From: a virus
Taxonomy: Duplodnaviria > Caudoviricetes
IMG/VR virus record: IMGVR_UViG_3300037483_001211
Span: 1-41,954 of that record
Length of the DNA stretch: 41,954 bases
Reading direction: 5' to 3' (one strand)
Part shown: piece by piece, positions 3,124-22,044 of the stretch
Layout of the letters: every line of letters starts with the position of its first letter
Numbering within the stretch: position 1 is the first letter of the stretch
Made by a program: the position numbers and the translations under genes
Notes under the pieces: generated by a model
The model's input: the letters and a program-made list of their open reading frames with translations, nothing else
Database searches by the model: none
Told to the model about the DNA's origin: nothing

Positions 3124-6100
3124 TTAACGCCGATACATCAACTCTCGCCGGTCCGGGCGGGTCCGAAGCGCCTGCTGCAGGGTCTGCAGGGTGATCGGCG
3201 GCACCAGCACGCCGCCCGGGGCACCGCGCAGCTCGCGGTTGAACTCGCGTACCATCTGCCCCGCCTGCTTGCGGTCCTTGGCAATGCGGAACCTCGCCAG
3301 CACGTCCGCTTTGCGCTCGTTCCAGTAATCCCGGGCGCGCAGGGCGTCCCAGCGGTTCTGACTCTGTTTCGACGGTTCCAGGGGCATGAAACCGAAGGCG
3401 CGGATCACGCCCTCTTTCGCCGTGTAGCGCACCTGCTTGCCATCGTCGCCGAACACCGGCCGCCCGGAAAGGGTGGTCGCCCCGTCGGCGTAGTGCCGAT
3501 AGGCGCGCAGGATGTTGGCCAGCGCCTCCGGCGACAGGTATTCCGCCGCCCGCCAGAAATCCGCCTTGCCCGCCGCGTCGGCGGCATAGACCACCTTTTG
3601 CGCCAGCCCGCCCCATACACCGGTCACCCGCTCCGCCAGGCTTTCATCCTCCGGAGAGAACCAGGGGATGTTCACCCCGATGGCCCGGCTGAAGTTCACC
3701 CCGGCCAGCGCCGGCGCGCCGTGCAGTACGAAGTCGGCGATCTGGTCGCCGAAGTCGGTGTACTCCCCGGCCGTCTCCCGCAGCCACTTGTCCAGCATCC
3801 GCAGCGGCCGCTCACCGAACAGCCGCCGGTACCACTTGTCCAGGTCGTCGCCGAAGGGCAGCGCCGCCAGCCCGCCGAACAGCACCAGAGCGGTCAGCGA
3901 ACGCGCCACCACCTGGAATTCCCCGTTGCCCAGGCTGCTCAACATCCCCAGCAGATAGTTGTGGGTATAGCTCTGGAAGGTATACAGGGTGCGCCCCAGC
4001 GGCCCCAACTTGCGCAGCACCGCCGGGATGTTCTCCTTGCCCACCACGAAATGCACGTCGTCGACAAACTTCTCGGCCTGCTTCAGGGCCGCTTCCTTCT
4101 CCAGCCCCTGGCCCCGGAACACCCGGAATGCCGCCAGCAAAGCCGGCTCGCGGTTCCAGTAGGTCTCCACCGCCTGGAAAGGCTTCATGGCCTTTTCCGT
4201 CAGCCAGCGCACCCCGCCCTGAAAATTGCCCATCACCCCGCCGGTATCGTCCATGCCGGACATCGCCCGCACGAAATTGGCCTGAGACCGGCCCCGCCGC
4301 AACCCCTGCTCCAGCGCCCAGCGTTCCTCCTCGGTCAGCAGACCCGCCTTGCCGGCCTTGGTCAGCAGGTGGTCCCGGAGCACGTCCACTTGCGCCTTGA
4401 GCAGCTTGCGGGTCGCCCCTTTGGTGTAGCTGGAGAGCTTCGCCTGCCCCCAGATATAGTTCTGGGTCGCGTTCAGTACCGCCGAAGAGGTCTTGAACCC
4501 CAGGTACATCAAGGCCGCGAAACTGCGGGCGGTGCCGAACCACTGGTCGATGTAGGTCGAATTCTTCAACGCATCGTCCACGTACTCCTTCACCCAGGAC
4601 TTGTCGTGCGGGCGGCTATCCGGAATCTCGGACATCAGCTTGTTGGCCCGCATGGCGAACTCGCTTTTCGACAGCCAGCCCGCCATGCCGCCCACGAACT
4701 GCGCCAGGATCGCCGGGGTATTCTGCGTCTCGTAGCCCTCGATCAGGTGCTGGGCGCGGGCCAGTTTGTGCCGACCGAAACCCCGGGCCGAAATCTCGTC
4801 GGCCAGGATGCGCAGCACCTGGTTCTGCACCGCCATCTGGTTTTCGAGCACCCCGGCCGCCGCCGCTTTGTCGAACACCTTGGACAGCAGCGCCTCGATC
4901 GCCCGGTGCGAGCCGATGCCCAAAAAGATTTCCTCCGGCGTCGCCGTGTTCGGCTCCACCACCACCTCGTAGTGGGCATTCGGATCGAAGGACTGGGGGA
5001 TGTATTCTGCCAGGTTCTTTTCCACCTTGTCCCGCAACTGCTTGGCGCCGAACTTGGTCTTCGCCGGCTGCATCCACACCTCGACAAAGGTGCCGTCCTC
5101 CCCGACCTGCCAGACCTTGACGTGCTGCTCGCCGTCCTTGCGGATGCGCGGCAGGTAACCTTCGACCTGCCGCCATTCATCCTTGAGCTTCGCCAGCTGA
5201 CTGTCGTAGGATTGCACCCCCTTGTAGGCGTTCAGCAGCTCCATCTTCTGCAGCATCGGATGCTCGTCGCCCAGCCGCAGCAGATCCAGCAGCGTCTTGT
5301 ACCACTGCGCCCGCTTGAACTTCTCGCCGGTGACGATCTCCACCCCGGCCAACTGCTTCTTCACCTCGAAAAACGCCTGCATCAGATCGGGAGATTTGCC
5401 GAACTCGGATTGCATCTCGACGCCGGTCATGCCCCGCTCCAGGGAATCGCGCAGGTTGCTGTACCAGGGCAGTTTCCGGTACGGATCGGTCAGGGCGTCC
5501 AGTTTCCGGCGCCCGGCGCGGATCTGCTGGTAGGCCTCCACCGCCTTCTCGTTGATGCCGAACCGGCGCGTCACTTGGTCGGAACTGAGCCCCTCGTCCA
5601 GCAGGTCGACCAGCTCCTGGTAATACTCCGTGCCCTCGTGGGGCAACAGCCGCAGCCGCCCCAGCCGGTCGAACATCACCTCCGTGGCGTGGGAGATGGT
5701 CTGCCGGAAGGCGAAATACGCACTCTGCACCCGCAGGGGCACCTGCCGCCCCAGGGGATTGTTGGCGCCGTTCAGATCCTCGACGCCATACTCCACCCCG
5801 GCTATATCCCCCTCCACCAGCAGCTTGTCCACCATCGCCCGCTCGGCCGTGGATGCCTTGCGCCAATGCTCCCGCAACCCCTCCATCCCGTCGTAATTCT
5901 TCGTTTGCGCCATGATCTCGTGCTTGATCTCGTTGGCATTGGCGCCGCGCTCCAGGGCCAGGTCGTAGGCCGCGCCCCGATGCTTGGACTTCTTGCTGCC
6001 GTAATGGGGATTGGACAAAACACTACCCACCGCCGCCTTCATCCGCTCCGGCAGCATGTCGGAGAGGGTTTCGAAGACCAAGCCGGCCTTATTCGGGGTA

Positions 6101-9100
6101 AGGTTCTTCACCAACTCCCGCCCGGCTGTGGCCTTGTCCCTGGCGGTTTGGGCGATGGAATAGCGAATACCATCGTCCGAATTCACATTGAAATCCTCAA
6201 TAAGTTGTGCTAGATTTTGAATATCCCTCGCAGAGCGGGTTGAAGTCAGGTCGATGCCGTCGGCACCGGCGGCTGCGGCAACCCATGTAGCTGCGGGGGA
6301 TTTTTCGTTGAACTCGACCGATTCCACGGAATACACTCGGTTGGGCGTACCGACATCCGCCGTCTCTTTCACGGTAATTTTCGCCAGCAGTATCTTTCCC
6401 TCCACATCCATGGGCACGAAAAACCTGCGAATTGCCCTGATATTCGGATCCTTGCGAACATCCGGCTTGCTCCACCCGGAAACCGCATCTTGAAACAAAA
6501 CATCCAAATTGGCGACTGCCAGCGCATGATGCCGCGAGGTTTCGGACTTTCCGACAGCCTTGTCGTTCAGCATCTTATCCAGGGAGTTGCGCGAAACACG
6601 GGCCACCAACCCGGTGGCGGCGTTGATCAGGTCCCTTCCCCGGAACGCTTCCGCCGCCTGCCTTGCCTCGCTGAAACTTGCCGCCTCGCGCAGAGGGACC
6701 ACCGCGGCAATCTCCGGGTTTACTCCCCCCGCCGAAAACTTCGCCATTATCTCTATGTCGGCGTCATCGAAAATGACGTAGTTCGAACTGCCATCGCCCG
6801 TGCCCCGGCTGGTTCCGTCCAGGTAGCGGATGCCCCGGATGCCGAGGGAGTGGAGAAATTCGGATGCGGCTTTGTCGTCGGGCTGGATATTCCCGTTCAT
6901 GTCCTCGTAGGTGCCGAGTTTTTTTGCGAGATCGATGTAAACCCCGCTCCCCTCCATCTCCCGCCGCTCCTGGGCTCCCGTGCGGTAATCGTCCCACAGG
7001 TAGGTATCTCTTTCCACCTGGCCGCGCAACGCCGACTGCACCTTCTCGCTCTGCTCTGAAAGCGGCTTGTCCCAGTCCAGATACTCGTCGTCGGCTGGGG
7101 CCAGTTCGACATGGTAGAGTCTGCCACGATCTATCTTTATGGTCTTTCGCCCCATGTCTATAACGGACTTAACCCGGTCAGCGAATAAACGAACGGCGGC
7201 TCCGCGCTTAGTATCACCATCTTGCTCGAAGGTCTTGGTGAACCGCAGCAAAGTCGCGTGAGCCGCTATCAGGTCGCCACCGTTATTATTCAATTCCACG
7301 GCAAGGTCCTTGGAGAGCCCATGTCCACCAAGACCGATAAGTTCGAGTTTTTTCAGCGCGTTCAATTTCCGCTCAGAAAGTACATCCCGGTAGTGCTCCG
7401 CAACCTCCCGCTTCCCGGCAAAATACAGCCCATGTCCATACGCCGGCGCCCCTTCGCCGGCGCCGACCTTGCTCATGTCGAATTTATCGTGGTCATGTGG
7501 CGATCCATGCCAGGCCGCCGAAAACCGCGCCATGCCCGACAGCAGTTTGGTCAACATCTCCTCGGTAATCCCGTGCTCGCGCAGCCGCTGCAGGATCTCC
7601 TGGCCGTTCAAGGCCACCACCGGCCCGTCCTTCGCCCAGGCGCCGGCCTCGGCGTAGGCCCGGGCGCGCTTCAGCAGAAAGGCGATATCCGTCTCGCCCA
7701 TCTGCGCCAGCGTGGCAAAACCGTTTTTGCGCAGCCAATCCCGCACCAGGCCGATGATCTCCCGCACCTTCGCGGCGATGCCGCCCCGGCTGTACTCCCG
7801 GGTCAGGTGGGTCAGCAGTTCCTCCATCAGGATCGCATGCCGGGTCGTATCGTCATAGCCCGCCTCGCGCAGGGCTTTCGCGTATCGGGTCAGGTTGAAC
7901 CGGTACTTCTTGGCCAGCCGCAGCATTTCCCCCGCCGGCAGGGACGCGTAGAGGTCCAGCATCGCCCGCTGCAGCCGCTTGCCGTCGTTGCCGAACATGG
8001 CGTACAGCCCGGCGTGGCCGTGCCACTCGTGGAACAGGATCTCCTCCAGCATCTTCACGCTTGTAATATGCTGGCGGACGATATAGACTTTGCCCCTATG
8101 AAATACGCCGTCTATCTCCTCGGGCTGGTTGCCCTGCTTCTCTACCTCCGCCAGAATGCGCGCCGGAAGCGCGCGCGCCGTCGACACTACTACGAATCCG
8201 TCCGTGTTTTCCATCCGGGCGGTGATCCGGTTGAAGACCGTATTGAATTCTACGTCCGCAAGCGCGACGGGGCCGACTGATTCCTGCTGCGCCGAGAACT
8301 TCGGCACCAAATCCCCGCCGCCTTCGGTCTCCGCTACAAACGCCGCCCGGGCCTCCGCGCTTTCGAACTGGAACCCGGGAACAGCCCCCTGCGCCCGGTA
8401 GTTGGAATAATAGCCGCCGTGCCGCTTGACCGCCTGGCGCAATTCGTTGAAAGCGTCTTTCTCCAGAAAATCGGTCGGCGTGGCCACGAACAGCTCGATG
8501 CCTTTCTTGGCGTGAGTCGTCTCAGTCAAGCGGAAACCGCCCTCCTCGACTGGCGCCGCCGCTTCCGCAGCTTCCCGCTCCTTGGTCTTCGGCCGATCGA
8601 TGCCCGCCTCCTCGATCCGCTCGAAAAACTCCTTGATCGTCACGGCGTCCGAGTAATCCCGGGACATCTGCGCCGGGGCCTCGGCCGGATCGCTCAGTTT
8701 GTCGATGACCACGATCCTCGCCGCCACCCTGGTTCCTGCCCGTTCGAAGGTCGCCTGCGGCAGCCTGACCTCCGCCGCCAGATGCAGATCCGGCCGCACG
8801 CTCCTGCCCTTCGCGTCCTCCTCATAAAACCACTTCTCGAACCGCTTGTCCGCCGCCGGCCCGGCGGGAATCAGAGCCACCACCCGGCCCCCCTCCCGCA
8901 GATGCCCGGTGGCCTTGTCCAGGTGCTCGATCGCCGTCTTGCCTCCGGTCCCGAAGGGCGGGTTCATGACGATGGCATCGAACTTGTTGACGATGTGAAA
9001 ATCCTCGAACCTCTCCTGCAGCAGCTTGGCATCCGTCACCATCTTCAGGCGGGACGCCAATTCGCTTGAGGGCTCGATCGCCGTGCGCGCGATATGCTCC

Positions 9101-12100
9101 GGAAACCAGCGGGCGATGGCGCCATGCCCGGCCGACGGCTCCAGGGCGCTCTCCCCGTCGCGGATGCCCGCCCATTCCACCATCTTCAAGCCCAGCGGCT
9201 CCGGCGTGGCGAAATAGTCCGTACCCTCCAGGGACTTGGTACGGCTGGTCTTCTTGTGCTGCGCGAAATACAGGGTCGTAGCCCGGTCCCACTCGGACAG
9301 GGCCGCATTCGCCGCCCGGTCCCGCTCCTTGCCTCCGATCCCCTCGCCCTCGTGTCCGGCCGGATAGGCGTCCGACTCCTCGAACGCCTGGATAAAGGCA
9401 TCCATCAGAGCCCGCGCCTCCTCGCCCAGCGCCAGATTCTCCGCCGTGCTCGAACGGCTGGCGATGGTTGTGGCGAAGGCGAACCGCTCCCAGTTGGTGC
9501 CCGTGTTCAGGTAGCGGAACAGCGCGTTGCTCCGCTGCCCCACCCGGTAGATGCGCCCCTCCTGCTGGATGGCCATGATCGGCCGGGTCGGCATCCCCAA
9601 GTTGAACAGCACCCGCTGATGTTTGCCCGTGGTATCGTGCCCGCTCCAGCCGGCGTTCTTGGCCGACTGCACCAGCAGCACCTGCGGCCCGCTGCCATCG
9701 TCGTTGAAGGTCTTATAGGCCGCCAGGTTCTCCTTGGTCGACTGGTCGCCGTTGACGATCAGCACCCCAGGGAAGTGTTGGCCGAACACCTCGATGGGCG
9801 ACGCCAGCCCGCGCAGGTCGAGCTTGGCCAGATCCGGGCGTTCCGCCTCGAACCCCTGCACCAGGGCCCCCAGCGTGGCCTGCTCGCCGTCCCCGGTGGC
9901 CACCTCCTGCCCGCTGTTGCGGTAGGCGCTCAGGTCAAAGGGGTTGAAGCCGCCGCCCTTCTTGTAGTCGTGGAATACTACCACCTTGCGGCCCAGGGCC
10001 AAGTGTTCCTTGACCAACGGCACCGCCTCCCGGGCCTTGATCGCCTCCAGCAGATAGCGCCGGGAGAGATGGTCAAACTTCTCTTGCACCAGGCGCCACA
10101 ACTCCCTATATCGCTTGTCCTCCCACAAAACCTGCAGCCCCTCGTCGATCTTCGCCCCGATGGCGTTTTCGGTCAGCACGAACTTGCGGTCATAGTCCTG
10201 ATCGACATCCAGCATCCGCCCGGCCAGCACCTGCTCCTTCTTCAGCCAGGAATTGAACTGCCGCTGCAGCAGACCGCGGTTGACCTCCGGGCCCGGCTCG
10301 GTCAGCTTGTGGTAGCGAATACGGTGGCCAAAATGCTCCACCATGAACTTTTCGAAGCCGCCCTGCCGGCTGTTGCCGATGTGGCCATCCTCCGGATAGT
10401 CGAACAGGTAGCCCTCGGCGTAGTCGACGTTCTTTTCGTAGGCAAACGGCGTCGCCGACAGGAACGCCACCCGGGTCCGTTGTTCGCCCTGCGCCGCATC
10501 CACCTGCGCGGCCACCGCTTTGCGGGTCTCCTCGATCCGCCGCTGCAGCGCGTTGATTTTGCCGTCCAGCTTTTCGTTCTCGAGCCGCAGGGAGTCATGC
10601 ACCTGGTCCATGGTGTCGTCCAGGTTCATGATCTTGACGTTCGCCTTGCGCTGTTCGATCAACCGCTTCAGCTCGTCGAGTTCCGGGCGGTAAAGCATGG
10701 CATGCCGGTCGGCCTTGCCGCGTGGATGGTTGCTGATCGCCCGCAGCGCGGCAAGTGCCAGGGTCTCGCCGCCATCCTTGGCCTGCATCAGGTTGTGAGA
10801 TTCGTCGGCCAGCACCAGATCCCAATCCCGCCGCACCAGGGCGTCATTCTGCCCCAGGTTGGCATAGGTGGCCACCACGATGCCCCGGCCGTGATCCTTG
10901 GTATCGGCCAGTTCGACGATCTCCAGCTCGAGATTCTTTCCCGATTCCCGCCAGTCGACCACCGCCTTGGCATCGGGCACCACGATCAGGATGTTCTCCT
11001 TGCCCTGGCGCTCGAAACGCTTGGCGATGCCCAGACCGGAATACGTCTTGCCCGTGCCGGTGCCGTTGGTGAACAGCACACCGTAGCCTTGCGGCTTGGC
11101 AAAGCGCTCCTCGGCAAAGGCCACGTCGGCCCGCTGTCCGTCATGGAGAAAGGGGAGGGATGCGTCGATATTGTTTTTGTCGGTAGGGATGATCTTGACG
11201 GACTGCGCCTTTTTCTGCGCGGTCCGCTTGGGGATCAGTTTGACGCCGCCTGTAGCAGCTGCGCCAACTGTTTCTGCTGGGATATGGTCAGGGGCGAGTC
11301 CATCGAGGCCAGCATCACCGCCTCGCTCACCGTCGTCACTTCCGGCAGGGCCGTCCTCAGCGAGAGACTGTTCGTCTTCAGAATATGGCGAGAAATCGCC
11401 TCGTTCTCCAGCAGCAACGGCTTCAGGTCCAGAAACGCCGACGCCACCTCGTGGGGTATGCCCTTCGCCTTCATCTGCAGGTACTCCTCGCTCACCTGCT
11501 CCGCCATCTGTTCCGGGTTCAGGGGAAAGGTCGCCTTCGCCCACGCGGTCCGCAGCTTCTGCGTCCGCGCGATTTCGTTCCAGATCGGCGCCGCTACGCT
11601 GGTCAGTGACATCGGTATCCTCCGTTTGAATTGTATCAGAATCTTTGGCGGCTTGAGCCCCTTCTGTAACCTCATCCACATCCAGGGCTTCCACCGTGGC
11701 CGCCGTGTCCATCCCCTCCGTGTTCAGCCCGGGGAAATACCGCGCGCCCATATACCAGCTCTTCAGGTAAGGCTTGACCGCCTCCCCCATCTCCGCGACG
11801 ATCCGGCGCGAAAACTTGGTAAAGGAGCGCACCCCGCCCTCCAGGTAGAAGACGGCCAACTCCGTACCCAAAGCCAAAATCTCCGGATCGATGCCGCTGC
11901 GCAACTCGCTGCTCAGCTTGGCCCGCAGCTTCGCCCTCAGCTGTTCGGCGCGTTCGGTGGTGACGAGTTGATTGGTGGAACCAAAGGAAGGGGACCGCCC
12001 GGCTTGCGGAGCGGTCAGTCCAGAAGGGGAAGCGTCGCCAGGTTCCGCTTGTACTTCCGCAGGACCTCCTGCCGGCTTTCCGAGAGAAGATCCTTGAACA

Positions 12101-15100
12101 CTTCGCTGGCCTGCAACTGCAGCAGTCCCTTTTGACTGTACTCCGGCACCGCCAGAATCGGCTTGCCCTGCAACGTTGTCAGGTGCGGAGCTTTCCCGGG
12201 TTTGATCATCACGTCCATTAGAACCCTCCTGTGTTGCAACAGTATCCGCTCCCTCCGCCTCTGTCAAGGACTGGAAAGCCAGCTTGCTTTTTCCGATCCC
12301 CCCAGGAACCCCGACCCACAGCCGCTCCAGGTATCCGGCGTCATCGACGTTCTGCAGATACACCGACTCGGGCAGAGCCGCAACATCGAGAAGCGCAATC
12401 TCGACACCTTCGCCCCTGTGCCGGGCGATATCCAGGGCATCCTGCAACTGGGTCGTAAACCACAGAGCCCGCACCTCCGCCCCGTTCTGCGCCGTATGCG
12501 GATGATCCGGATTTGCCTCCAGCCGCTCGGGGTGGCGGTCCTTGTCCCCCGTGAAGAGGGCGCGATACAGCGTCCCGCCCTTGCCGATCGCCTTCAGCGC
12601 CTGCCCCTTGCCGGCCAAATAGAGGGTGCGCCTGGTGGTGCCGGGCGAAACCTGCTCGTCCTTCAAGGTCTGCACCGAAGGCAGCGAAGGGACCTCCGCT
12701 ACCGTCCCGTCGCCGGGCTCCGCTCCTGCCGCTTTTCCAGGGCGCTTTGCACCAGGTACAGCACCCGTTCCTGCTCCGGGGGGCTCAGCGCCTGAAAGCG
12801 CTGTTTCAGATCCTCCGGTATGCGCAGCCGGGGTTTGTCCCTCTTCGCTATCTTTTCCAGTTCTTCCCTTAGTTTCTCCGGCGGCACTTTGTCCAGCCCG
12901 AGACGTTTCAATCTGGCCTCCATCGACATTGCCATCCTCCTTTTGCAGGGCGGTACGGCCGTCGGCCGTTTCTACCACCCGATCGATATTGTCGTGCCCG
13001 TTGAATTCGGTGACGCCGAAATAGATGCCGACCCCGGGACGCCCGCCCTTGGGGTGCGGAATGGCGTCAAAACCGTTTTCCTTAACGTAAGTATCCACTC
13101 TTTCCTGGGCTCTTGCAAGGATATCGTGAAGTTGTTCCTCCGTCGTATCCGGGGCGAGGGTGCCGAACTCGTCCCCACCTTTGCGAAAAGTCTGTACTTC
13201 CGGGATTTCCTCCTCGACCGCTCCCCGGATGATGTCGGCAATAGCTCGCACATGGGGGTTCGCCTTGGCGTTTCCCCTCACATACTTGTTAAACCCGCCG
13301 AGGTTCCGGAGGTCGATGTCGGCATAAGCAAATCCGCGACCGCTTTCCTTGTGCGCTTCCCAGGCCCGCTCCAGGGTCGGGCGATGGTGGTCAACCTTCT
13401 GTAGGCCAGTCACCGGGTCCGGCTGGCGCACCAGCCTCCGGCGCTCCGCCATCAGGTCGGAGTGCAGCGGGTTGTCTTCATCGATGCCCCCGGCCTTGAG
13501 CCGGGCGGCCAAGGACGACTCGTGAATGTCGGCTTCGCTCTGGAACGGAACCGCTACCGGCTTTCCGCCGGGCGCCGCTCCTGCCGCTTCTCCATGACGA
13601 TTTGCAGCAGGGCCAGCACCATCCCCCGCTCCTCCGGTATGATCAGCCGTTTTTCGCTCATCGGTCATCTCCTCCAACAGGGTATTGATCGCGTCCTCGG
13701 GGGACATCATCAGCCATTCGCCCTGCTCCAGCGCGGCGAACAGCTCCGCCGCCAGCAGCGGCAATTCCTCACTCCGATCGTCCAGCGGCTCATGCGCCAC
13801 CAGGTCGGCGAACTCGGGATGGAACCGGCGCAGCGCCAGTTCGTTGCGCACCTCGGCCAGCCGCGTCGGGCGTCGCACCGTGCGGCCGTCGACCAGCACC
13901 GTGAATTTACCCTCGGCATCCTTGGCCTTCAGCCGCACGCCGATCTGCTTGCCATCCCGCACCAGCGCCGGGAAGGAAATCTTCGTTCCGCCGTCGTCCC
14001 GCCAGCCGGTTTCCGCCTTGACTCGCTCCAGGTTCTCCCGCCAGGCAGCCACAAGCTCATGCTGCTTTTCGGTGAGCGGGGCACCCTTCGCCGCCTTCCG
14101 CAGCGCCGCGACCGCCTCCCCCGCCTTGTAGTCGCCATCCAAGTACCAGCCGTGGGCCGCGCTGTTGGCGCTCACCGTCGCCCGCCGCTGCACCCCGTCG
14201 AACACCAGCTTCTCGGCGTTCCCGGCATTGGCGCGGATATCCTCGGCATCGGCCTGCGCCGCCTGCCGATCCATCGGCGACAGTTCCACCACCGTCTTAG
14301 CCGGTTTCTCCGGCCGGAAGGCCAGCGGCTTCGAAGTATCCCCGTTTTTCAGCCAGGCCTTAAACTGGTCGACGGCCATCTCCGTGATGGCCCCGCGACG
14401 CTGATCCCCCTTGAGATCGGAAAACCCGCCCCGATAGAGACTGGAGGCCTCGTACAGATCGGCCGCCCCGAAAATCGCCTTGTGCTCATCGAATTTGCCC
14501 GTGCGCAGATCCACCTGGTCCACTACGAAGACCTTGGTGCTCTCCGGGTCCGGCCCCACATAGACGTCCACATGGTCGCCGTCGGCCCCTTCGCTCTTGC
14601 GGATATAGCCGTAATGCGCCGGCAACCGCACCGACCAGGGCTTGCCGCCCGGATCGACGCCGGAGCGCTGCGAGCCGCGAGGATTCTCGATCGAGATATC
14701 CAGCCCGTGCAGCGAGATATGCCCCTTTTTGTAGTTGCCCGCCTCGATCTGCGCCGTCGTCGGCTCCGGCCGATCATTGGCCGGCGAAGTGGCCGCCTCG
14801 TGGGCCTGTGCGTCGATTTCGCTCGCTACAGCCGCTCCCCGCACTGCGGACACTTCCGCCTGCGGCCAGCCGACTTCTTGCTGCACTTCGGACAGATCGC
14901 CATCATAGGCTCCTTTCGGTATGGCATTCAACCGTGGCATCCCGGGAGCCATGCCGGGCCCTGCGGTCGACATCGGCACCACCTTCGCCACTGCCTTCGA
15001 CAATGCCCCGGCCGACTTCTGCGGCCCCATGCCTGTGTTGAAAAGACGCTGCCGGGAAGCGGCTACCTGATCATCCGTCATGCCAGGGACAATAAGGCCC

Positions 15101-16290
15101 CGGCTGATAATGGCGTTCTTCTGCTCCGGAGTGACGGCGGTTCCTTCCGGCGACACTTCGACCGCCGGGGCCGGGAGCAGCCGGGATTCGTCGGTGATCG
15201 GCTGCGGTCCCGTGGCATCTGCGGAGGGCTCGGCTACCGGTTCGGACACGGTTTCAGCCTTTCTGGCTGTGCCGGAATCTCCGGCCAGAACCGCCGCAGG
15301 GCCGCCCACCAGACCGCCAATGGCCGATTCGATGATGCCGTCAAAGTAGCCGGTCGCCTCGTCGTAACCGTGCTTGGCAATGGCGTTCTGCACCACTGAT
15401 TGAGCCGATTCCGTGCCGGATTCACCGACCATGCCGATCAACAGACGGCGACCGGCAGGCCCGGAGGCTTTCAGGATTGTATCCAGGCCGTATTTTTCCA
15501 GCAGGAAGGTTGCCGTACCGGCCTTCATTGCGAAGTTTAGAGCTTCCTTCGGGGTCTTACCCATTTTAATGGCGGCTTCGTAGATCCCCCCGGCTTCCGC
15601 ACCGGAAAGAATGACCGCCCCGGCTTCGGGGCCGGCGACAATCGAGACAGGGACCGCCACGGCCATGGAAACACCGCCCTGCACCAAGGCCGATACGCCG
15701 CGCTTAACGCTGGGATTCTCCAGGAAGGTGCCGCCATACTTCGGGGCATAATCCCTTGCTACCTCGTTCCAGTAGCCGCTGGTGTCGTCGAGAAGCATGG
15801 TGCCGAACTTATCGCTCGGGTCGCCTATATGCTTATCCAACCACCGGGTATACTTGGTGCTGCCGAGCTTGGCCATCTCTTCCTTGTGCTGCTCCGGAGT
15901 GATGATGCCTTCGGACAGCCGCCGGTCAAGCCAGGCCCGGCCCGGTGCCCCGAGCCGGTATTGCAAGTCCTCCGCACCTTCTCGGTCGGCTTCACGGACA
16001 CCCTTCGCCAGAGAGGCGATGCCGCCGACTATCCCGGTCAAACCAGATACGGCCGCCCCGCCCGTCGCCTGCAGCCAGTTGGCATCGCCTTCCTGCCCAT
16101 GGAAAACCTCGTCGCTGCCGGACACTCCGGATTCCGCGGCGTTGATATCCGTGGCCGCGATAGCCGCCTTGTCCCACCAGGAAGGCTCTGCCGGTTCGGC
16201 CGCCACGTCAAAAATATCCCCGCCGCCCTGGCGTTTCGCTTGGGCGGCGACAGGTTCTTCGGCATCGATCAAATCAAAAATGTCGGCCAT
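3124..16290 (-). CDS. Giant (4388 aa) polyvalent, probably virion-ejected protein, DarB-like
   Basis: N to C: inorganic-pyrophosphatase-like domain (GNYKKGH..IENP.GS.RSG..HYGYI..GADGDHVDV..FDEHK, ~14330-14810); GGDEF-like (~12945-13420); SF2 helicase (NGTGTGKT, DESH, SAT, QQEGRIYR, ~9400-11170); N6-adenine MTase-like (YFATP, LEPSAGHG, NPPF, ~8700-9230); metallopeptidase-like HEWHGH (8014-8031); ADP-ribosyltransferase-like (WHGS..GLYF..GIRY..NYVIFD, ~6750-7510); LPD3-like (~6310-6650); long helical C-terminus. Confidence 0.9.
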   Translation of the reverse strand: MADIFDLIDAEEPVAAQAKRQGGGDIFDVAAEPAEPSWWDKAAIAATDINAAESGVSGSDEVFHGQEGDANWLQATGGAAVSGLTGIVGGIASLAKGVREADREGAEDLQYRLGAPGRAWLDRRLSEGIITPEQHKEEMAKLGSTKYTRWLDKHIGDPSDKFGTMLLDDTSGYWNEVARDYAPKYGGTFLENPSVKRGVSALVQGGVSMAVAVPVSIVAGPEAGAVILSGAEAGGIYEAAIKMGKTPKEALNFAMKAGTATFLLEKYGLDTILKASGPAGRRLLIGMVGESGTESAQSVVQNAIAKHGYDEATGYFDGIIESAIGGLVGGPAAVLAGDSGTARKAETVSEPVAEPSADATGPQPITDESRLLPAPAVEVSPEGTAVTPEQKNAIISRGLIVPGMTDDQVAASRQRLFNTGMGPQKSAGALSKAVAKVVPMSTAGPGMAPGMPRLNAIPKGAYDGDLSEVQQEVGWPQAEVSAVRGAAVASEIDAQAHEAATSPANDRPEPTTAQIEAGNYKKGHISLHGLDISIENPRGSQRSGVDPGGKPWSVRLPAHYGYIRKSEGADGDHVDVYVGPDPESTKVFVVDQVDLRTGKFDEHKAIFGAADLYEASSLYRGGFSDLKGDQRRGAITEMAVDQFKAWLKNGDTSKPLAFRPEKPAKTVVELSPMDRQAAQADAEDIRANAGNAEKLVFDGVQRRATVSANSAAHGWYLDGDYKAGEAVAALRKAAKGAPLTEKQHELVAAWRENLERVKAETGWRDDGGTKISFPALVRDGKQIGVRLKAKDAEGKFTVLVDGRTVRRPTRLAEVRNELALRRFHPEFADLVAHEPLDDRSEELPLLAAELFAALEQGEWLMMSPEDAINTLLEEMTDERKTADHTGGAGDGAGPAANRHGEAAGAAPGGKPVAVPFQSEADIHESSLAARLKAGGIDEDNPLHSDLMAERRRLVRQPDPVTGLQKVDHHRPTLERAWEAHKESGRGFAYADIDLRNLGGFNKYVRGNAKANPHVRAIADIIRGAVEEEIPEVQTFRKGGDEFGTLAPDTTEEQLHDILARAQERVDTYVKENGFDAIPHPKGGRPGVGIYFGVTEFNGHDNIDRVVETADGRTALQKEDGNVDGGQIETSRAGQSAAGETKGRTGKDSEEGQTPAAHTGGSETALSGAEPPGAGTGAVPGAKRPGKAAGAEPGDGTVAEVPSLPSVQTLKDEQVSPGTTRRTLYLAGKGQALKAIGKGGTLYRALFTGDKDRHPERLEANPDHPHTAQNGAEVRALWFTTQLQDALDIARHRGEGVEIALLDVAALPESVYLQNVDDAGYLERLWVGVPGGIGKSKLAFQSLTEAEGADTVATQEGSNGRDDQTRESSAPDNVAGQADSGGAGVQSKGTAAVAGQRSVQGSSLGKPAGGPAEVQAEPGDASPSGLTAPQAGRSPSFGSTNQLVTTERAEQLRAKLRAKLSSELRSGIDPEILALGTELAVFYLEGGVRSFTKFSRRIVAEMGEAVKPYLKSWYMGARYFPGLNTEGMDTAATVEALDVDEVTEGAQAAKDSDTIQTEDTDVTDQRSGADLERNRADAEAADRVGEGDLSPEPGTDGGAGERGVPADEGEGHTPRGGVGVSGPEAVAAGERGDFSPYSEDEQSLAEDGPAGSDDGERGGDAGLDGLAPDHIPAETVGAAATGGVKLIPKRTAQKKAQSVKIIPTDKNNIDASLPFLHDGQRADVAFAEERFAKPQGYGVLFTNGTGTGKTYSGLGIAKRFERQGKENILIVVPDAKAVVDWRESGKNLELEIVELADTKDHGRGIVVATYANLGQNDALVRRDWDLVLADESHNLMQAKDGGETLALAALRAISNHPRGKADRHAMLYRPELDELKRLIEQRKANVKIMNLDDTMDQVHDSLRLENEKLDGKINALQRRIEETRKAVAAQVDAAQGEQRTRVAFLSATPFAYEKNVDYAEGYLFDYPEDGHIGNSRQGGFEKFMVEHFGHRIRYHKLTEPGPEVNRGLLQRQFNSWLKKEQVLAGRMLDVDQDYDRKFVLTENAIGAKIDEGLQVLWEDKRYRELWRLVQEKFDHLSRRYLLEAIKAREAVPLVKEHLALGRKVVVFHDYKKGGGFNPFDLSAYRNSGQEVATGDGEQATLGALVQGFEAERPDLAKLDLRGLASPIEVFGQHFPGVLIVNGDQSTKENLAAYKTFNDDGSGPQVLLVQSAKNAGWSGHDTTGKHQRVLFNLGMPTRPIMAIQQEGRIYRVGQRSNALFRYLNTGTNWERFAFATTIASRSSTAENLALGEEARALMDAFIQAFEESDAYPAGHEGEGIGGKERDRAANAALSEWDRATTLYFAQHKKTSRTKSLEGTDYFATPEPLGLKMVEWAGIRDGESALEPSAGHGAIARWFPEHIARTAIEPSSELASRLKMVTDAKLLQERFEDFHIVNKFDAIVMNPPFGTGGKTAIEHLDKATGHLREGGRVVALIPAGPAADKRFEKWFYEEDAKGRSVRPDLHLAAEVRLPQATFERAGTRVAARIVVIDKLSDPAEAPAQMSRDYSDAVTIKEFFERIEEAGIDRPKTKEREAAEAAAPVEEGGFRLTETTHAKKGIELFVATPTDFLEKDAFNELRQAVKRHGGYYSNYRAQGAVPGFQFESAEARAAFVAETEGGGDLVPKFSAQQESVGPVALADVEFNTVFNRITARMENTDGFVVVSTARALPARILAEVEKQGNQPEEIDGVFHRGKVYIVRQHITSVKMLEEILFHEWHGHAGLYAMFGNDGKRLQRAMLDLYASLPAGEMLRLAKKYRFNLTRYAKALREAGYDDTTRHAILMEELLTHLTREYSRGGIAAKVREIIGLVRDWLRKNGFATLAQMGETDIAFLLKRARAYAEAGAWAKDGPVVALNGQEILQRLREHGITEEMLTKLLSGMARFSAAWHGSPHDHDKFDMSKVGAGEGAPAYGHGLYFAGKREVAEHYRDVLSERKLNALKKLELIGLGGHGLSKDLAVELNNNGGDLIAAHATLLRFTKTFEQDGDTKRGAAVRLFADRVKSVIDMGRKTIKIDRGRLYHVELAPADDEYLDWDKPLSEQSEKVQSALRGQVERDTYLWDDYRTGAQERREMEGSGVYIDLAKKLGTYEDMNGNIQPDDKAASEFLHSLGIRGIRYLDGTSRGTGDGSSNYVIFDDADIEIMAKFSAGGVNPEIAAVVPLREAASFSEARQAAEAFRGRDLINAATGLVARVSRNSLDKMLNDKAVGKSETSRHHALAVANLDVLFQDAVSGWSKPDVRKDPNIRAIRRFFVPMDVEGKILLAKITVKETADVGTPNRVYSVESVEFNEKSPAATWVAAAAGADGIDLTSTRSARDIQNLAQLIEDFNVNSDDGIRYSIAQTARDKATAGRELVKNLTPNKAGLVFETLSDMLPERMKAAVGSVLSNPHYGSKKSKHRGAAYDLALERGANANEIKHEIMAQTKNYDGMEGLREHWRKASTAERAMVDKLLVEGDIAGVEYGVEDLNGANNPLGRQVPLRVQSAYFAFRQTISHATEVMFDRLGRLRLLPHEGTEYYQELVDLLDEGLSSDQVTRRFGINEKAVEAYQQIRAGRRKLDALTDPYRKLPWYSNLRDSLERGMTGVEMQSEFGKSPDLMQAFFEVKKQLAGVEIVTGEKFKRAQWYKTLLDLLRLGDEHPMLQKMELLNAYKGVQSYDSQLAKLKDEWRQVEGYLPRIRKDGEQHVKVWQVGEDGTFVEVWMQPAKTKFGAKQLRDKVEKNLAEYIPQSFDPNAHYEVVVEPNTATPEEIFLGIGSHRAIEALLSKVFDKAAAAGVLENQMAVQNQVLRILADEISARGFGRHKLARAQHLIEGYETQNTPAILAQFVGGMAGWLSKSEFAMRANKLMSEIPDSRPHDKSWVKEYVDDALKNSTYIDQWFGTARSFAALMYLGFKTSSAVLNATQNYIWGQAKLSSYTKGATRKLLKAQVDVLRDHLLTKAGKAGLLTEEERWALEQGLRRGRSQANFVRAMSGMDDTGGVMGNFQGGVRWLTEKAMKPFQAVETYWNREPALLAAFRVFRGQGLEKEAALKQAEKFVDDVHFVVGKENIPAVLRKLGPLGRTLYTFQSYTHNYLLGMLSSLGNGEFQVVARSLTALVLFGGLAALPFGDDLDKWYRRLFGERPLRMLDKWLRETAGEYTDFGDQIADFVLHGAPALAGVNFSRAIGVNIPWFSPEDESLAERVTGVWGGLAQKVVYAADAAGKADFWRAAEYLSPEALANILRAYRHYADGATTLSGRPVFGDDGKQVRYTAKEGVIRAFGFMPLEPSKQSQNRWDALRARDYWNERKADVLARFRIAKDRKQAGQMVREFNRELRGAPGGVLVPPITLQTLQQALRTRPDRRELMYRR
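11235..11612 (-). CDS. Nested +1-frame ORF D (125 aa, MSLTSVAAPIWNEIARTQKL...)
   Basis: GGAGG 6 nt before ATG; extended -10 TGaTACAAT at 11638-11630; globular Leu/Ala/Glu-rich composition while the main frame is a low-complexity linker. Confidence 0.65.
   Translation of the reverse strand: MSLTSVAAPIWNEIARTQKLRTAWAKATFPLNPEQMAEQVSEEYLQMKAKGIPHEVASAFLDLKPLLLENEAISRHILKTNSLSLRTALPEVTTVSEAVMLASMDSPLTISQQKQLAQLLQAASN
12015..12218 (-). CDS. Nested +1-frame ORF C (67 aa, MDVMIKPGKAPHL...)
   Basis: AGGAGG 6 nt before ATG; consensus-like promoter immediately upstream. Confidence 0.55.
   Translation of the reverse strand: MDVMIKPGKAPHLTTLQGKPILAVPEYSQKGLLQLQASEVFKDLLSESRQEVLRKYKRNLATLPLLD
12239..12267 (-). 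promoter_or_regulatory. Internal sigma70-like promoter inside the giant gene
   Basis: TTGACA (12267-12262), 17 nt, TACTGT (12244-12239), ending 8 nt before the SD of nested ORF C. Confidence 0.55.
12699..12929 (-). CDS. Nested +1-frame ORF B (76 aa, MSMEARLKRLGLDKVPPEKL...)
   Basis: AAAAGGAGG 6 nt before ATG; K/E/L/R-rich amphipathic helices; starts exactly where the GGDEF domain ends. Confidence 0.6.
   Translation of the reverse strand: MSMEARLKRLGLDKVPPEKLREELEKIAKRDKPRLRIPEDLKQRFQALSPPEQERVLYLVQSALEKRQERSPATGR
13554..13661 (-). CDS. Nested +1-frame ORF A (35 aa, MSEKRLIIPEERGMVLALLQIVMEKRQERRPAESR)
   Basis: Translated by hand (below the track cutoff); GGAGGAG 7 nt before ATG; similar to the C-terminal half of ORF B. 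Confidence 0.5.
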   Translation of the reverse strand: MSEKRLIIPEERGMVLALLQIVMEKRQERRPAESR

Positions 16291-19886: not shown

Positions 19887-20402
19887 TTAGCCCCAGTCAA
19901 TAGCTGCTACGTCTTCAGCGGTTTCGGCCGCAACAATAGCCTTGGCCAGCCGCTGCCGCTTCCCGGTAATGGCCCCTGCCGCAACGCCGAACCAGGCCGC
20001 CGCGGCAATGATCTTCTGACACAGGCCGGCTTTATCCTCGCCGACAACCTGTCTTTCCGCCAATAAACTATCAACCATCGGGGTAGGAAAGGTGTTGTCC
20101 CTCTGCCAATTGACCGCCTCCATGTACTGTGCGGAGTAGGTTTCCCGCTCTTTGGGAGGATCGATAGGAAGAGCGTCGATGGTCGCGTCGTAGGCGGCGT
20201 TTATTTCCTGAAGCTTGACTGCTTTCAACTCATCAAGCGTAGGCCCTGCGGGCGCAACAACCCAAACGCCGCCTACGAGTTTACACGATTCACCCTGTGG
20301 ATCGTAGAGGGGTGGTACCTCGTCGGTGGCGAGTGCCCAACCGGTCGTGCGGGGTAGCGGGTTGCAAATATGTTCAAGAGTTACGGGGTGGTAGTAATGC
20401 AT
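19887..20402 (-). CDS. Putative tail fibre assembly/chaperone protein
   Basis: LDELKAVKLQEINAAYD..ERETY..PTPMVD..GKRQRL..AAETAEDVAAIDW pattern; downstream of the fibre/DGR block. Confidence 0.65.
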   Translation of the reverse strand: MHYYHPVTLEHICNPLPRTTGWALATDEVPPLYDPQGESCKLVGGVWVVAPAGPTLDELKAVKLQEINAAYDATIDALPIDPPKERETYSAQYMEAVNWQRDNTFPTPMVDSLLAERQVVGEDKAGLCQKIIAAAAWFGVAAGAITGKRQRLAKAIVAAETAEDVAAIDWG

Positions 20403-21379
20403 TTTGCTACTCCTAAATGTTTCAGCAGGTTATGACTGTCAGCCCAGGCCGCATGGCCGCGCCAGCTCGCCAAAAATCTTTCAAGGGCCGCGTGATCCCC
20501 GCAGGAGCGGTATCTTCTGATTTTCTTTTTGGCGCGGGCTACAGACGCAGGACGCAATAATTTATGACTTGGCCAGATCCTGTATCCCAGAAAATTCAGA
20601 CCCCTGGTCACTGGAGCGATGGACCACCGCGAAAAATCAAGCCGCATCTCGGTTTCGCAAAACCACTTGAGGTGGAAGCGGAACACCTCCAAATACTCGC
20701 GGCTATGCGCGAAAATAACCGTGTCATCCATATAGCGCAGAAAACACTTATGGTGAACCGTATGCACAAGAAGGCGGTCAAGTATGTGTCCGTAGATATT
20801 GGCGCAAAGTTGGCTGGTTAAATTACCGATCGGCAGACCGACGCCGCTTGGTGGATGAAAGAGCTCCAGTAATGCCAGGGTTCGATTGCAGGAGATTTTG
20901 CGGCGGATTTCGCGATGCAATATTGAGCGGTCGATCGAAGCGAAGTAGCTGGCCCAGTCAATTTTCAAATACCAGGCCGGGCCCGTACGGAGCATCCGGC
21001 GCATGGTCGCCTGGGCGGCAACTGCTCCTCGGTGGGTGCCCTTGCCTGGCCGGCAGGCGTAGCTTTGCGGCAAAAATACTCGTTCAAAAATCGGCTCGAT
21101 GGCTGCAACCAGGGCGTGCTGAACGATCCGGTCACGAAAAGGCAAGGCCGAGATGGCGCGTTTTTTAGGTTCGTAGACAGTAAATTGTTGTGGTGGGCCA
21201 GGAAGATAACTACCATCCCTGATCTCGTGGCTCAGCAGCACAAGGTTGGCCGCCTCCTGCTGCCTGAATAGCAAATAGCCGATAGTGCCGCGCTTACCGG
21301 CCGACGCCTTGCGGTACGCTCGCCAAAGCGCATCCAGGTCATAGACTTGATCAAACAGCCCGCGATGCTTCTTCCCCAT
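20381..21379 (-). CDS. DGR reverse transcriptase
   Basis: YEPKKRAI, FRDRIVQHA, SYACRPGKGTH, YLKID..YF.SI, GLPIGNLTSQ (DGR-type SQ), RYMDD, FLGYRI. Confidence 0.95.
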   Translation of the reverse strand: MGKKHRGLFDQVYDLDALWRAYRKASAGKRGTIGYLLFRQQEAANLVLLSHEIRDGSYLPGPPQQFTVYEPKKRAISALPFRDRIVQHALVAAIEPIFERVFLPQSYACRPGKGTHRGAVAAQATMRRMLRTGPAWYLKIDWASYFASIDRSILHREIRRKISCNRTLALLELFHPPSGVGLPIGNLTSQLCANIYGHILDRLLVHTVHHKCFLRYMDDTVIFAHSREYLEVFRFHLKWFCETEMRLDFSRWSIAPVTRGLNFLGYRIWPSHKLLRPASVARAKKKIRRYRSCGDHAALERFLASWRGHAAWADSHNLLKHLGVAKCITTTP

Positions 21380-21536
21380 GTTTCTTCCTTAAAATGCCGG
21401 CGCGGCTTTCGCAACTGCTACTCACCGTTCTCCGGACCTTGTAATGTGTTCGCCGAAGCCGGTAGGGCTAGGCTGACCACCGGGATGATGGTCCGCCGGC
21501 GGCGCCTTGGCAGCGCCGGTGGGTTTTCCTTTGGTT

Positions 21537-21640
21537 GTCACAGGCGGCGCGGAAGCCATTGTTCCAGTTCGAATTCCACGGGTAACTGTTCCAGTTCACG
21601 CACCGCGAACCCGAGTCGGTGGCGTTCGTGCGATTGCCGC
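21537..21640 (-). repeat. DGR template repeat (TR)
   Basis: 104-bp gapless match to 22062-22165; lies between avd and RT; AAC/AAT-rich in the target frame (GNRTNATDSGSRCVNWNSYPWNSNWNNGFRAACD). Confidence 0.95.
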
Positions 21641-21653
21641 TTTTGCCCCATCC

Positions 21654-22007
21654 CTACCGTTTTTGCGCTGCCTTGATCCAGGCCCCAAGCATCGCGCCGG
21701 TTTCGGCCAGGTGCACACTGGCCACCTCGTACTGGCGGCGGCTTAACAGCTTGCGGGTCGGGTCGGCCAGCAGCCGCAAAAATCCTCTTATCGTGGCGAG
21801 GCCGGCATCGGCCAGGTAGAGGCGGGAGGCCTGCCCGGACTTTGCCGCGTCATGAAACAAGCCTAGCTGCGCCAGCAAAGCCCGAAGGGTCTCGTCTCGT
21901 AAAACCCGGTGCTTGTGGCTCATATTGAGCAGCATGGGGTAGAGATAGTTGATCGCGCCTTCGTACCGTTCAACAATCGCCAGGGCTTTTTGACTGCTTC
22001 GTTCCAC
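21654..22007 (-). CDS. avd: DGR accessory variability determinant
   Basis: 117-aa basic helical protein (..LYLADAGLATIRGFLR..LLSRRQY..L.ETG.MLGAWIK) between target and TR. Confidence 0.9.
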   Translation of the reverse strand: MERSSQKALAIVERYEGAINYLYPMLLNMSHKHRVLRDETLRALLAQLGLFHDAAKSGQASRLYLADAGLATIRGFLRLLADPTRKLLSRRQYEVASVHLAETGAMLGAWIKAAQKR

Positions 22008-22028
22008 GATATTCCATTTCCTATTTCC

Positions 22029-22044
22029 GCCGGCTTTCGCCGGC
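22029..22044 (-). other. DGR target-recognition hairpin
   Basis: GCCGGC-GAAA-GCCGGC immediately after the VR/IMH, overlapping the target stop codon. Confidence 0.8.

Follow-up and report, generated by a model that had tools for sequence, protein, structure and literature searches.

The 41,954-base stretch of DNA analysed here (the window) is the whole of a Caudoviricetes record, IMGVR_UViG_3300037483_001211, whose genes include those for a terminase, an SU10-type portal, adaptors and an amidase. Its minus strand carries a giant gene (3124–16290) that encodes 4388 aa and also, in the +1 frame of the linkers between its domains, four small open reading frames (ORFs) that a first-pass annotation had proposed to be hidden genes. 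One of these, ORF4, is under selection at the protein level next to one and the same helicase in many related phages, and the nested ORFs therefore are very likely real genes. (One contig from a sediment metagenome run matches the tested stretch with 0 differences, and that run is a possible source of the record.)

Four reading frames nested in a polyvalent gene

The 3124–16290 product is what Iyer et al. (2017; PMC5512222) call a phage polyvalent protein: a disparate repertoire of enzymatic domains within one polypeptide. As the accessible part of that paper describes them, polyvalent proteins are giant multidomain proteins whose genes lie in the virion cluster beside lysis genes. The minus-strand run that contains the giant gene here also holds the portal, terminase, adaptor and amidase genes, so that it is encoded among virion genes. 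By analogy with that account, the giant protein presumably is packaged and injected.

All features described here lie on the minus strand. The modules of the giant protein include InPase (aa 513–648; 14347–14754; Pfam PF18823, E 1e-49); GGDEF, with its motif intact (aa 958–1120; 12931–13419; PF00990, E 9e-8); an unannotated domain that is possibly ADP-ribosyltransferase (ART)-like, a lead only from the Atlas (aa 1204–1352; 12235–12681); a small helical domain frequent in such giant proteins, here labelled LPD-like although it has no Pfam match (11692–11955); an SF2 (Strawberry-notch-like) helicase module with ResIII and Helicase_C_4 matches (aa about 1695–2330; 9301–11208); and an adenine methyltransferase (MTase) with an NPPF motif (aa about 2345–2550; 8641–9258). 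LPD3 and PLxRFG domains are also present.

Each nested ORF lies entirely inside the giant ORF, in a shifted frame and with its own start signal; the positions, lengths, strand and Shine-Dalgarno (SD) sites at 6–7 nt given in the first-pass annotation all hold. ORF1 (13554–13661; 35 aa) follows an acidic unannotated domain and has the SD GGAGGAG (13669–13675; spacing 7 nt). ORF2 (12699–12929; 76 aa) encodes a basic product (net +6), and its first codon stands directly after the end of GGDEF; its SD is AAAAGGAGG (12936–12944; spacing 6 nt). ORF3 (12015–12218; 67 aa) has the SD AGGAGG (12225–12230; 6 nt), and ORF4 (11235–11612; 125 aa), which ends at the helicase amino terminus, has GGAGG (11619–11623; 6 nt). 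SD duplex energies range from -9.5 to -11.8 kcal/mol. The starts correspond to main-frame residues 877, 1121, 1358, and 1560, and each marks a passage from domain to linker, as had been claimed (GGDEF ends at 1120). None of the four products contains cysteine.

Base composition sets these segments apart. The main frame has a third-position G+C content (GC3) of 0.395 within the four ORFs and 0.808 outside them, and none of 3906 outside windows of 35 codons falls to a main-frame GC3 of 0.42 or below. The nested frames' own GC3 is 0.75 to 0.86, and thus gene-like periodicity there resides in the +1 frame. Trained on 15 further genes of this phage, a codon model gives positive scores to 4 of 32 +1 ORFs, exactly ORF1 to ORF4 (0.56 to 0.66 per codon; the next best scores -0.07). 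No further nested ORF of at least 15 aa exceeds the codon threshold in the giant gene. A scan for internal sigma-70 promoters detected 0, and a single terminator-like site, below chance expectation.

ORF4 and its helicase

Close homologs of ORF4 number 98, mostly of 120 to 130 aa, and its family, which carries no annotation, divides into about 558 clusters at 50% identity. (P0122, a top-ranking family row, was dropped as a repeat artefact.) The predicted structure is all-helical, with a confidence score (pLDDT) of 90.6. Foldseek found no match to it in the PDB or viral sets (best E 1.3 and 0.53); the best VIA hit had Z 4.7, not a match; the Atlas gave nothing usable; and comparison with PHROG and Pfam families revealed no sequence match.

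The locus set comprises 90 loci: 89 relatives and the window. ORF4 always occupies the +1 frame, and 88 of the 90 have a host frame that stays open over it. Among 76 distinct sequences, compared after two truncated loci were dropped, mean identity is 38% in the nested frame versus 24% in the host frame, and the nested frame is the more alike in 2848 of 2850 pairs. The pooled ratio of nonsynonymous to synonymous substitution (dN/dS) over 17 close pairs is 0.30 for the ORF4 frame and 1.51 for the host frame. Of the roughly 180 host-frame stops to be expected from 2432 opportunities, 0 occur (74 of the 76 sequences; two stop-bearing orphans excluded). By these comparative measures ORF4 is dual coding: its protein is under purifying selection, and the host frame is only kept open. 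An SD beyond -5 kcal/mol precedes 91% of 77 ORF4 starts versus 14% of 1624 other +1 ATGs, a percentage somewhat inflated because the start chosen was the one with the best SD around the expected position.

These results refine the earlier view that the linkers are by-products of hidden genes. The linkers indeed are the out-of-frame shadow of such genes; the host frame, however, is under selection to stay open, and the linker therefore is kept, not a mere by-product.

The helicase lies downstream of ORF4 in 82 of the 90 loci, at -16 to +62 nt in 80 of those. (Two of the eight other loci are contig ends and six are real.) Among 50,697 phage records, the ORF4 search and the helicase search match the same 8 records, from 6 phages. 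Pseudomonas phage Skulduggery, for example, has a nested 129-aa ORF at L105 8977. Three cultured-phage records that were checked each contain an intact 129-aa ORF with an SD, and ORF4 is annotated in none of five, as anticipated for genes that standard annotation would miss; the Parlo announcement (PMC6606913) makes no mention of an ORF4-type nested ORF in its main text. Loci picked instead by the helicase (the best 80 of 365, found with patterns derived from ORF4-bearing loci, many of the contigs repeating the earlier ORF4 set) contain a nested ORF4 in 72 of 80 cases, 68 within the distance limit and 4 further upstream. The remaining eight are seven stand-alone helicase-MTase genes, which also are more distant (39–41%), and one giant gene, so ORF4 is present in 72 of 73 giant-gene loci in this set. 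An LPD-like domain occurs, at variable spacing, in 85 of 117 distinct ORF4 loci, and the helicase in 109 of 117. Near the helicase start, loci L046 and L175 contain an in-frame insertion of about 340 aa in the P-loop region, intein-like by eye.

Short peptides, cassettes and orphans

ORF3 has one independent homolog, in L100 and L101 (identical over the part compared). There, too, it comes after the 149-aa domain (66% identical); the rest of the giant gene differs, and SD and ATG are retained. The two ORF3 sequences agree at 44 of 67 positions when the nested frame is read, as against 33 of 67 for the host frame; selection on both frames is thus indicated by many loci for ORF4 and by one homolog for ORF3. 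ORF3 and the domain upstream of it appear to have moved as a unit between giant genes. The case for that domain as an ART is a weak Atlas lead (0.90 over 101 of 256 features); Foldseek found no match, the model is poor (pLDDT 48.8), and a search among giant proteins returned the window's own protein alone. (L186, considered as a relative, was a spurious match.) L100 also has a different nested +1 gene (7348–7530) ahead of an MTase-first module, with no Pfam or NCBIfam match; it may resemble DUF1896/TnpV.

ORF1 and the carboxyl-terminal half of ORF2 are paralogous (15 of 29 residues identical), and their 3' ends coincide with copies of a duplicated segment of about 85 nt: a diverged copy 1 at 13541–13625 and copy 2 at 12686–12770. 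Between 12-bp direct repeats (13641–13630 and 12822–12811) lies an 819-nt GGDEF cassette (12809–13627). One contig in run X3 (depth 3), from a related strain, joins 13628 to 12808; the 819 nt are gone, both frames are open, and one 47-codon nested gene is left. One contig in run X2 places an ORF2-like end ahead of GGDEF. As single low-depth contigs at relaxed likeness, these provide only hints of cassette gain and loss. Six variant sites listed in ORF2 and ORF4, anecdotal in number, are silent in the nested frame in 5 of 6 cases and change the host frame in 6 of 6. A search for GGDEF-domain relatives yielded none, or one weak unannotated match.

Support for the hidden genes thus is graded: strong for ORF4 and good for ORF3, with composition, paralogy, and strain contigs alone speaking for ORF1 and ORF2. 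We regard ORF4 as a virtually certain gene, ORF3 as a highly probable one, ORF2 as probable with good confidence, and ORF1 as likely.

In codon-model scans of related giant genes, 86 host genes yielded 121 candidates and 84 overlapping loci yielded 130; every one is in the +1 frame and none in +2. Those outside the ORF4 family include 79 short peptides (median 56 aa), of which 58 are basic. The 91 homologous pairs of such peptides, which are not independent of one another, have the upstream domain in common in 80 cases and the downstream domain in 49; the upstream domain alone is common to 33 pairs, the downstream domain alone to 2. Across related loci, linkage accordingly is module-wise, tying ORF4 to the helicase-MTase that follows it and the short basic peptides to the domains that precede them. 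The suggestion that nested genes are tied to neighbouring domains has held up in this form.

Some related loci display further arrangements. In L034 (9836–10381), L037, L048, and L063, a peptide of 51 to 53 aa and then ORF4 follow stop-to-start in the same +1 frame, as a hidden run of two genes. HNH-like endonuclease ORFs occupy the +1 frame, with the host frame unbroken, in L064 (8222–8677), L069 (7253–7600), L079 (8762–9070), and L146 (3171–3650); these were judged by eye on motif, and Pfam returned helix-turn-helix (HTH) matches only. A polyvalent frame of 4554 codons in L068 (6094–19755) has a P22-like portal domain fused amino-terminally.

ORF4 also occurs without a living host frame. In the orphans L082 and L083 it is intact, with 1 host-frame stop in the conserved part of L082 and 2 in that of L083. 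L082 (107–889; G001:C50 27476–28240) is a stand-alone homolog with an AT-rich upstream region. It lies in a 681-nt interval flanked by copies of a repeat resembling clustered regularly interspaced short palindromic repeats (CRISPR), found 50 times in the genome, mostly at a spacing of about 64 nt; Rfam identified nothing on L082. It is possible that this is a captured gene in a mini-array, or it could be a misassembly, at one contig end of a metagenome-assembled genome. L082 ORF4 also adjoins a gene pair that is MazEF/PemIK-like by eye. With one query, lacking a positive control, and in assemblies that may be incomplete, the helicase was not found in five orphan-bearing genomes. A survey of 400 genomes from the same phylum as G001 gave a single additional match, a nested prophage copy.

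Of 149 ORF4 representatives, 33 reach at least 160 aa: 7 of these include main-frame LPD-region sequence, and 6 include other nested-peptide families in frame. Stand-alone fusions with LPD-like sequence, nested-peptide families, or both are P0118, P0191, P0205, P0217, P0256, P0165, and P0172. P0165 adds hydrophobic segments, and P0036 and P0117 carry an HTH-like tail (by eye).

Elsewhere in the window are a diversity-generating retroelement (19887–24053: reverse transcriptase, Avd, and an Mtd-like target) and a 518-aa gene with an S-adenosylmethionine methyltransferase domain (31074–29518) amid head and adaptor genes. A 51-aa +2-frame ORF (19281–19126) within 19295–18489 scored as coding (log-likelihood ratio 13.7, weak SD); it lies directly past the 19486–19115 ORF region, where the gene start possibly is miscalled.

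Proposed domain-bound partners, rival readings, and known systems

Our preferred reading, whose chances we put at about even, is that the nested genes encode internally initiated small partner proteins that bind and restrain their own domains in the producing cell, as inhibitors or chaperones. The giant gene would be a chain of modules, its linkers holding small +1 genes, each equipped with a ribosome-binding site. Ribosomes initiating internally on the late mRNA would yield separate small proteins, each of which may bind its cognate domain during synthesis and packaging of the giant protein. If the small proteins are excluded from the virion, the domains would switch on only once injected into a new cell. 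The arrangement could have arisen through in-frame read-through that engulfed operons of an enzyme plus a small gene. Engulfment would be easiest at +1, because a host-frame stop there needs T at the small gene's third codon position and can always be removed synonymously. Orphans with a dead host frame, fused stand-alone proteins, and partner linkage speak for this scheme.

Several observations weigh against domain-bound partners. The giant gene of L167 has the helicase and lacks ORF4, and those of L098 and L099 keep an intact ORF4 despite in-frame loss of the helicase-MTase. (These two losses are independent, remove the helicase and most of the MTase, and have similar end points.) ORF4 distances follow the helicase at r 0.64–0.68, less closely than parts of the helicase follow one another (0.78–0.88), a comparison judged uninformative; and physical linkage by itself would produce co-occurrence. 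The GGDEF domain of L045 has no above-threshold nested ORF behind it. Because 7 of the 33 long representatives join ORF4 to main-frame sequence of the LPD-like kind, the LPD-like domain could be its partner, although we think it less likely to be the main one. Searches of the nested products against Pfam, PHROG, NCBIfam, PADLOC, and fold databases gave no significant match to antitoxin or immunity families.

It is unlikely, in our estimation, that the nested proteins instead serve in assembly or packaging, helping to load the giant protein into the head, perhaps being packaged themselves and leaving catalysis uninhibited, like Ulx and DdrB for P1 DarB. P1 Ulx (17 kDa; ORF 9, beside DarB ORF 10) aids DarB localization and is in the virion, according to the accessible part of PMC9024508, and ORF4 accompanies the virion-fused helicase and was not found near the six stand-alone helicase genes examined. 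Packaging, however, explains poorly the orphan ORF4 genes in cellular genomes where the helicase query found none, and many short peptides behind many different domains exceed the need of a packaging step. We likewise doubt that the nested genes encode small effectors or regulators acting on their own (for anti-defence, DNA binding, or lysogeny), hitch-hiking and leaving the neighbouring domain unaffected. ORF4 outlives helicase loss and exists as an orphan, the short peptides are mostly basic, and the HNH-like ORFs in +1 linkers of some relatives mean that unrelated passengers can occupy linkers. Mere passengers, though, would not account for ORF4 being nearly fixed next to one helicase family across distant phages, nor for specific upstream domains preceding specific peptide families.

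Action in cis seems quite improbable: frameshifting or reinitiation that produces ORF4-helicase fusions or a shortened giant protein, or control over how the long mRNA is translated. The ORF4 stop does lie directly at the helicase amino terminus, but a slippery heptamer occurs near it at only 8 of 61 loci, in differing places, and an in-frame ATG at 1 of 61. On these counts frameshifting or reinitiation at this stop was rejected; the slippery site is not conserved. The 33 long representatives, moreover, include no full ORF4-helicase fusion (P0098 and P0256 have short amino-terminal helicase pieces), and it is the ORF4 peptide sequence that is under purifying selection. Hardly credible, finally, is a chance by-product of G/A/E/D-rich linkers that yield SD-like words and open +1 frames. 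In its favour, the expected excess of SD-ATG-ORF combinations over controls proved marginal by itself, 15 of 300 synonymous shuffles reaching the count of 4, and the open frames of ORF1 (1000 of 1000 resamplings), ORF2 (614 of 1000), and ORF3 (802 of 1000) are unremarkable; ORF2, moreover, found no homolog in database searches. The ORF4 frame is unusual (42 of 1000), and for ORF4 chance is excluded by the inversion of codon positions, dual-frame dN/dS, the 558-cluster family, the confident fold, and orphans with dead host frames. The closer agreement of ORF3 with its homolog in its own frame likewise speaks against chance, which is a minor possibility for ORF1.

Restraint by domain-bound partners can be extended into a tentative proposal, which we favour less: that giant injected proteins hold an overprinted array of domain-specific inhibitors, a toxin-immunity locus in one ORF that is rebuilt by swapping cassettes of a domain plus its hidden gene, and that bacteria capture the inhibitors singly or concatenated (one of them between CRISPR-like repeats) to disarm phage effectors. 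If the products are domain-specific inhibitors, this would explain why a string of nucleotide-, DNA-, and protein-modifying enzymes is tolerated by the cell that makes it; it also would supply off-switches ready for use, and give a functional handle on many domains that are uncharacterised. The nested genes represent a widespread class of phage gene that is invisible to annotation because it is located inside the largest gene of the genome, and their loci form a large natural set for studying the origin of overlapping genes. ORF4, with unannotated copies in six cultured phages and no known family or fold match, is testable now.

Embedded genes are of a known kind. The Rz1 spanin gene lies fully within Rz in a shifted frame, with its own ribosome-binding site, and the two products cooperate. 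Embedded spanins are named in Parlo (PMC6606913). The nested products here have no cysteine and no spanin match, and their host gene encodes no spanin; unlike that one lipoprotein pair in a short gene, they are several unrelated soluble proteins in the linkers of one giant gene, and they are module-swapped. In ShiLan, an HNH gene is inserted out of frame in a phage methylase, whose own frame continues through the insertion as an unstructured loop (PMC11855218, in the accessible part). The likeness is a hidden other-frame gene read through by its host, and the HNH-like ORFs nested in L064, L069, L079, and L146 resemble this case. That insertion is a patchy, selfish homing element without a ribosome-binding site, whereas the ORFs described here have strong SDs and no HNH family match in Pfam or other family searches, and ORF4 is nearly fixed and all-helical.

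Described polyvalent proteins offer the same InPase, GGDEF, SF2 helicase with adenine MTase, and LPD3 domains, encoded in the virion gene cluster, but the main text of PMC5512222, in its accessible part, contains neither the word "overlap" nor "linker", and proposes no partner genes. In the P1 DarB dyad the MTase is amino-terminal to the SF2 helicase, with LPD36; here the order is reversed, helicase (1695–2330) before MTase (2345–2550). P1 Ulx and DdrB provide a parallel in that a small protein is encoded beside a virion helicase-MTase. Their genes, in the accessible part of PMC9024508, are separate and non-overlapping, whereas ORF4 is nested. In the open-access literature we found no paper on nested genes in polyvalent or DarB-like genes, nor a modular array of them in polyvalent-gene linkers.

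A further likeness is to polymorphic toxin-immunity cassettes and type II toxin-antitoxin pairs. In those systems a small gene moves with the adjacent enzyme domain, cassettes are exchanged through short repeats, and orphan copies occur. Here, too, a small gene appears to move with an adjacent enzyme domain, a cassette is flanked by repeats, and orphans are found. The nested products match no known immunity family. The enzyme domains here are internal to one polypeptide, unlike those of the known pairs, and the putative partner gene therefore is overprinted.

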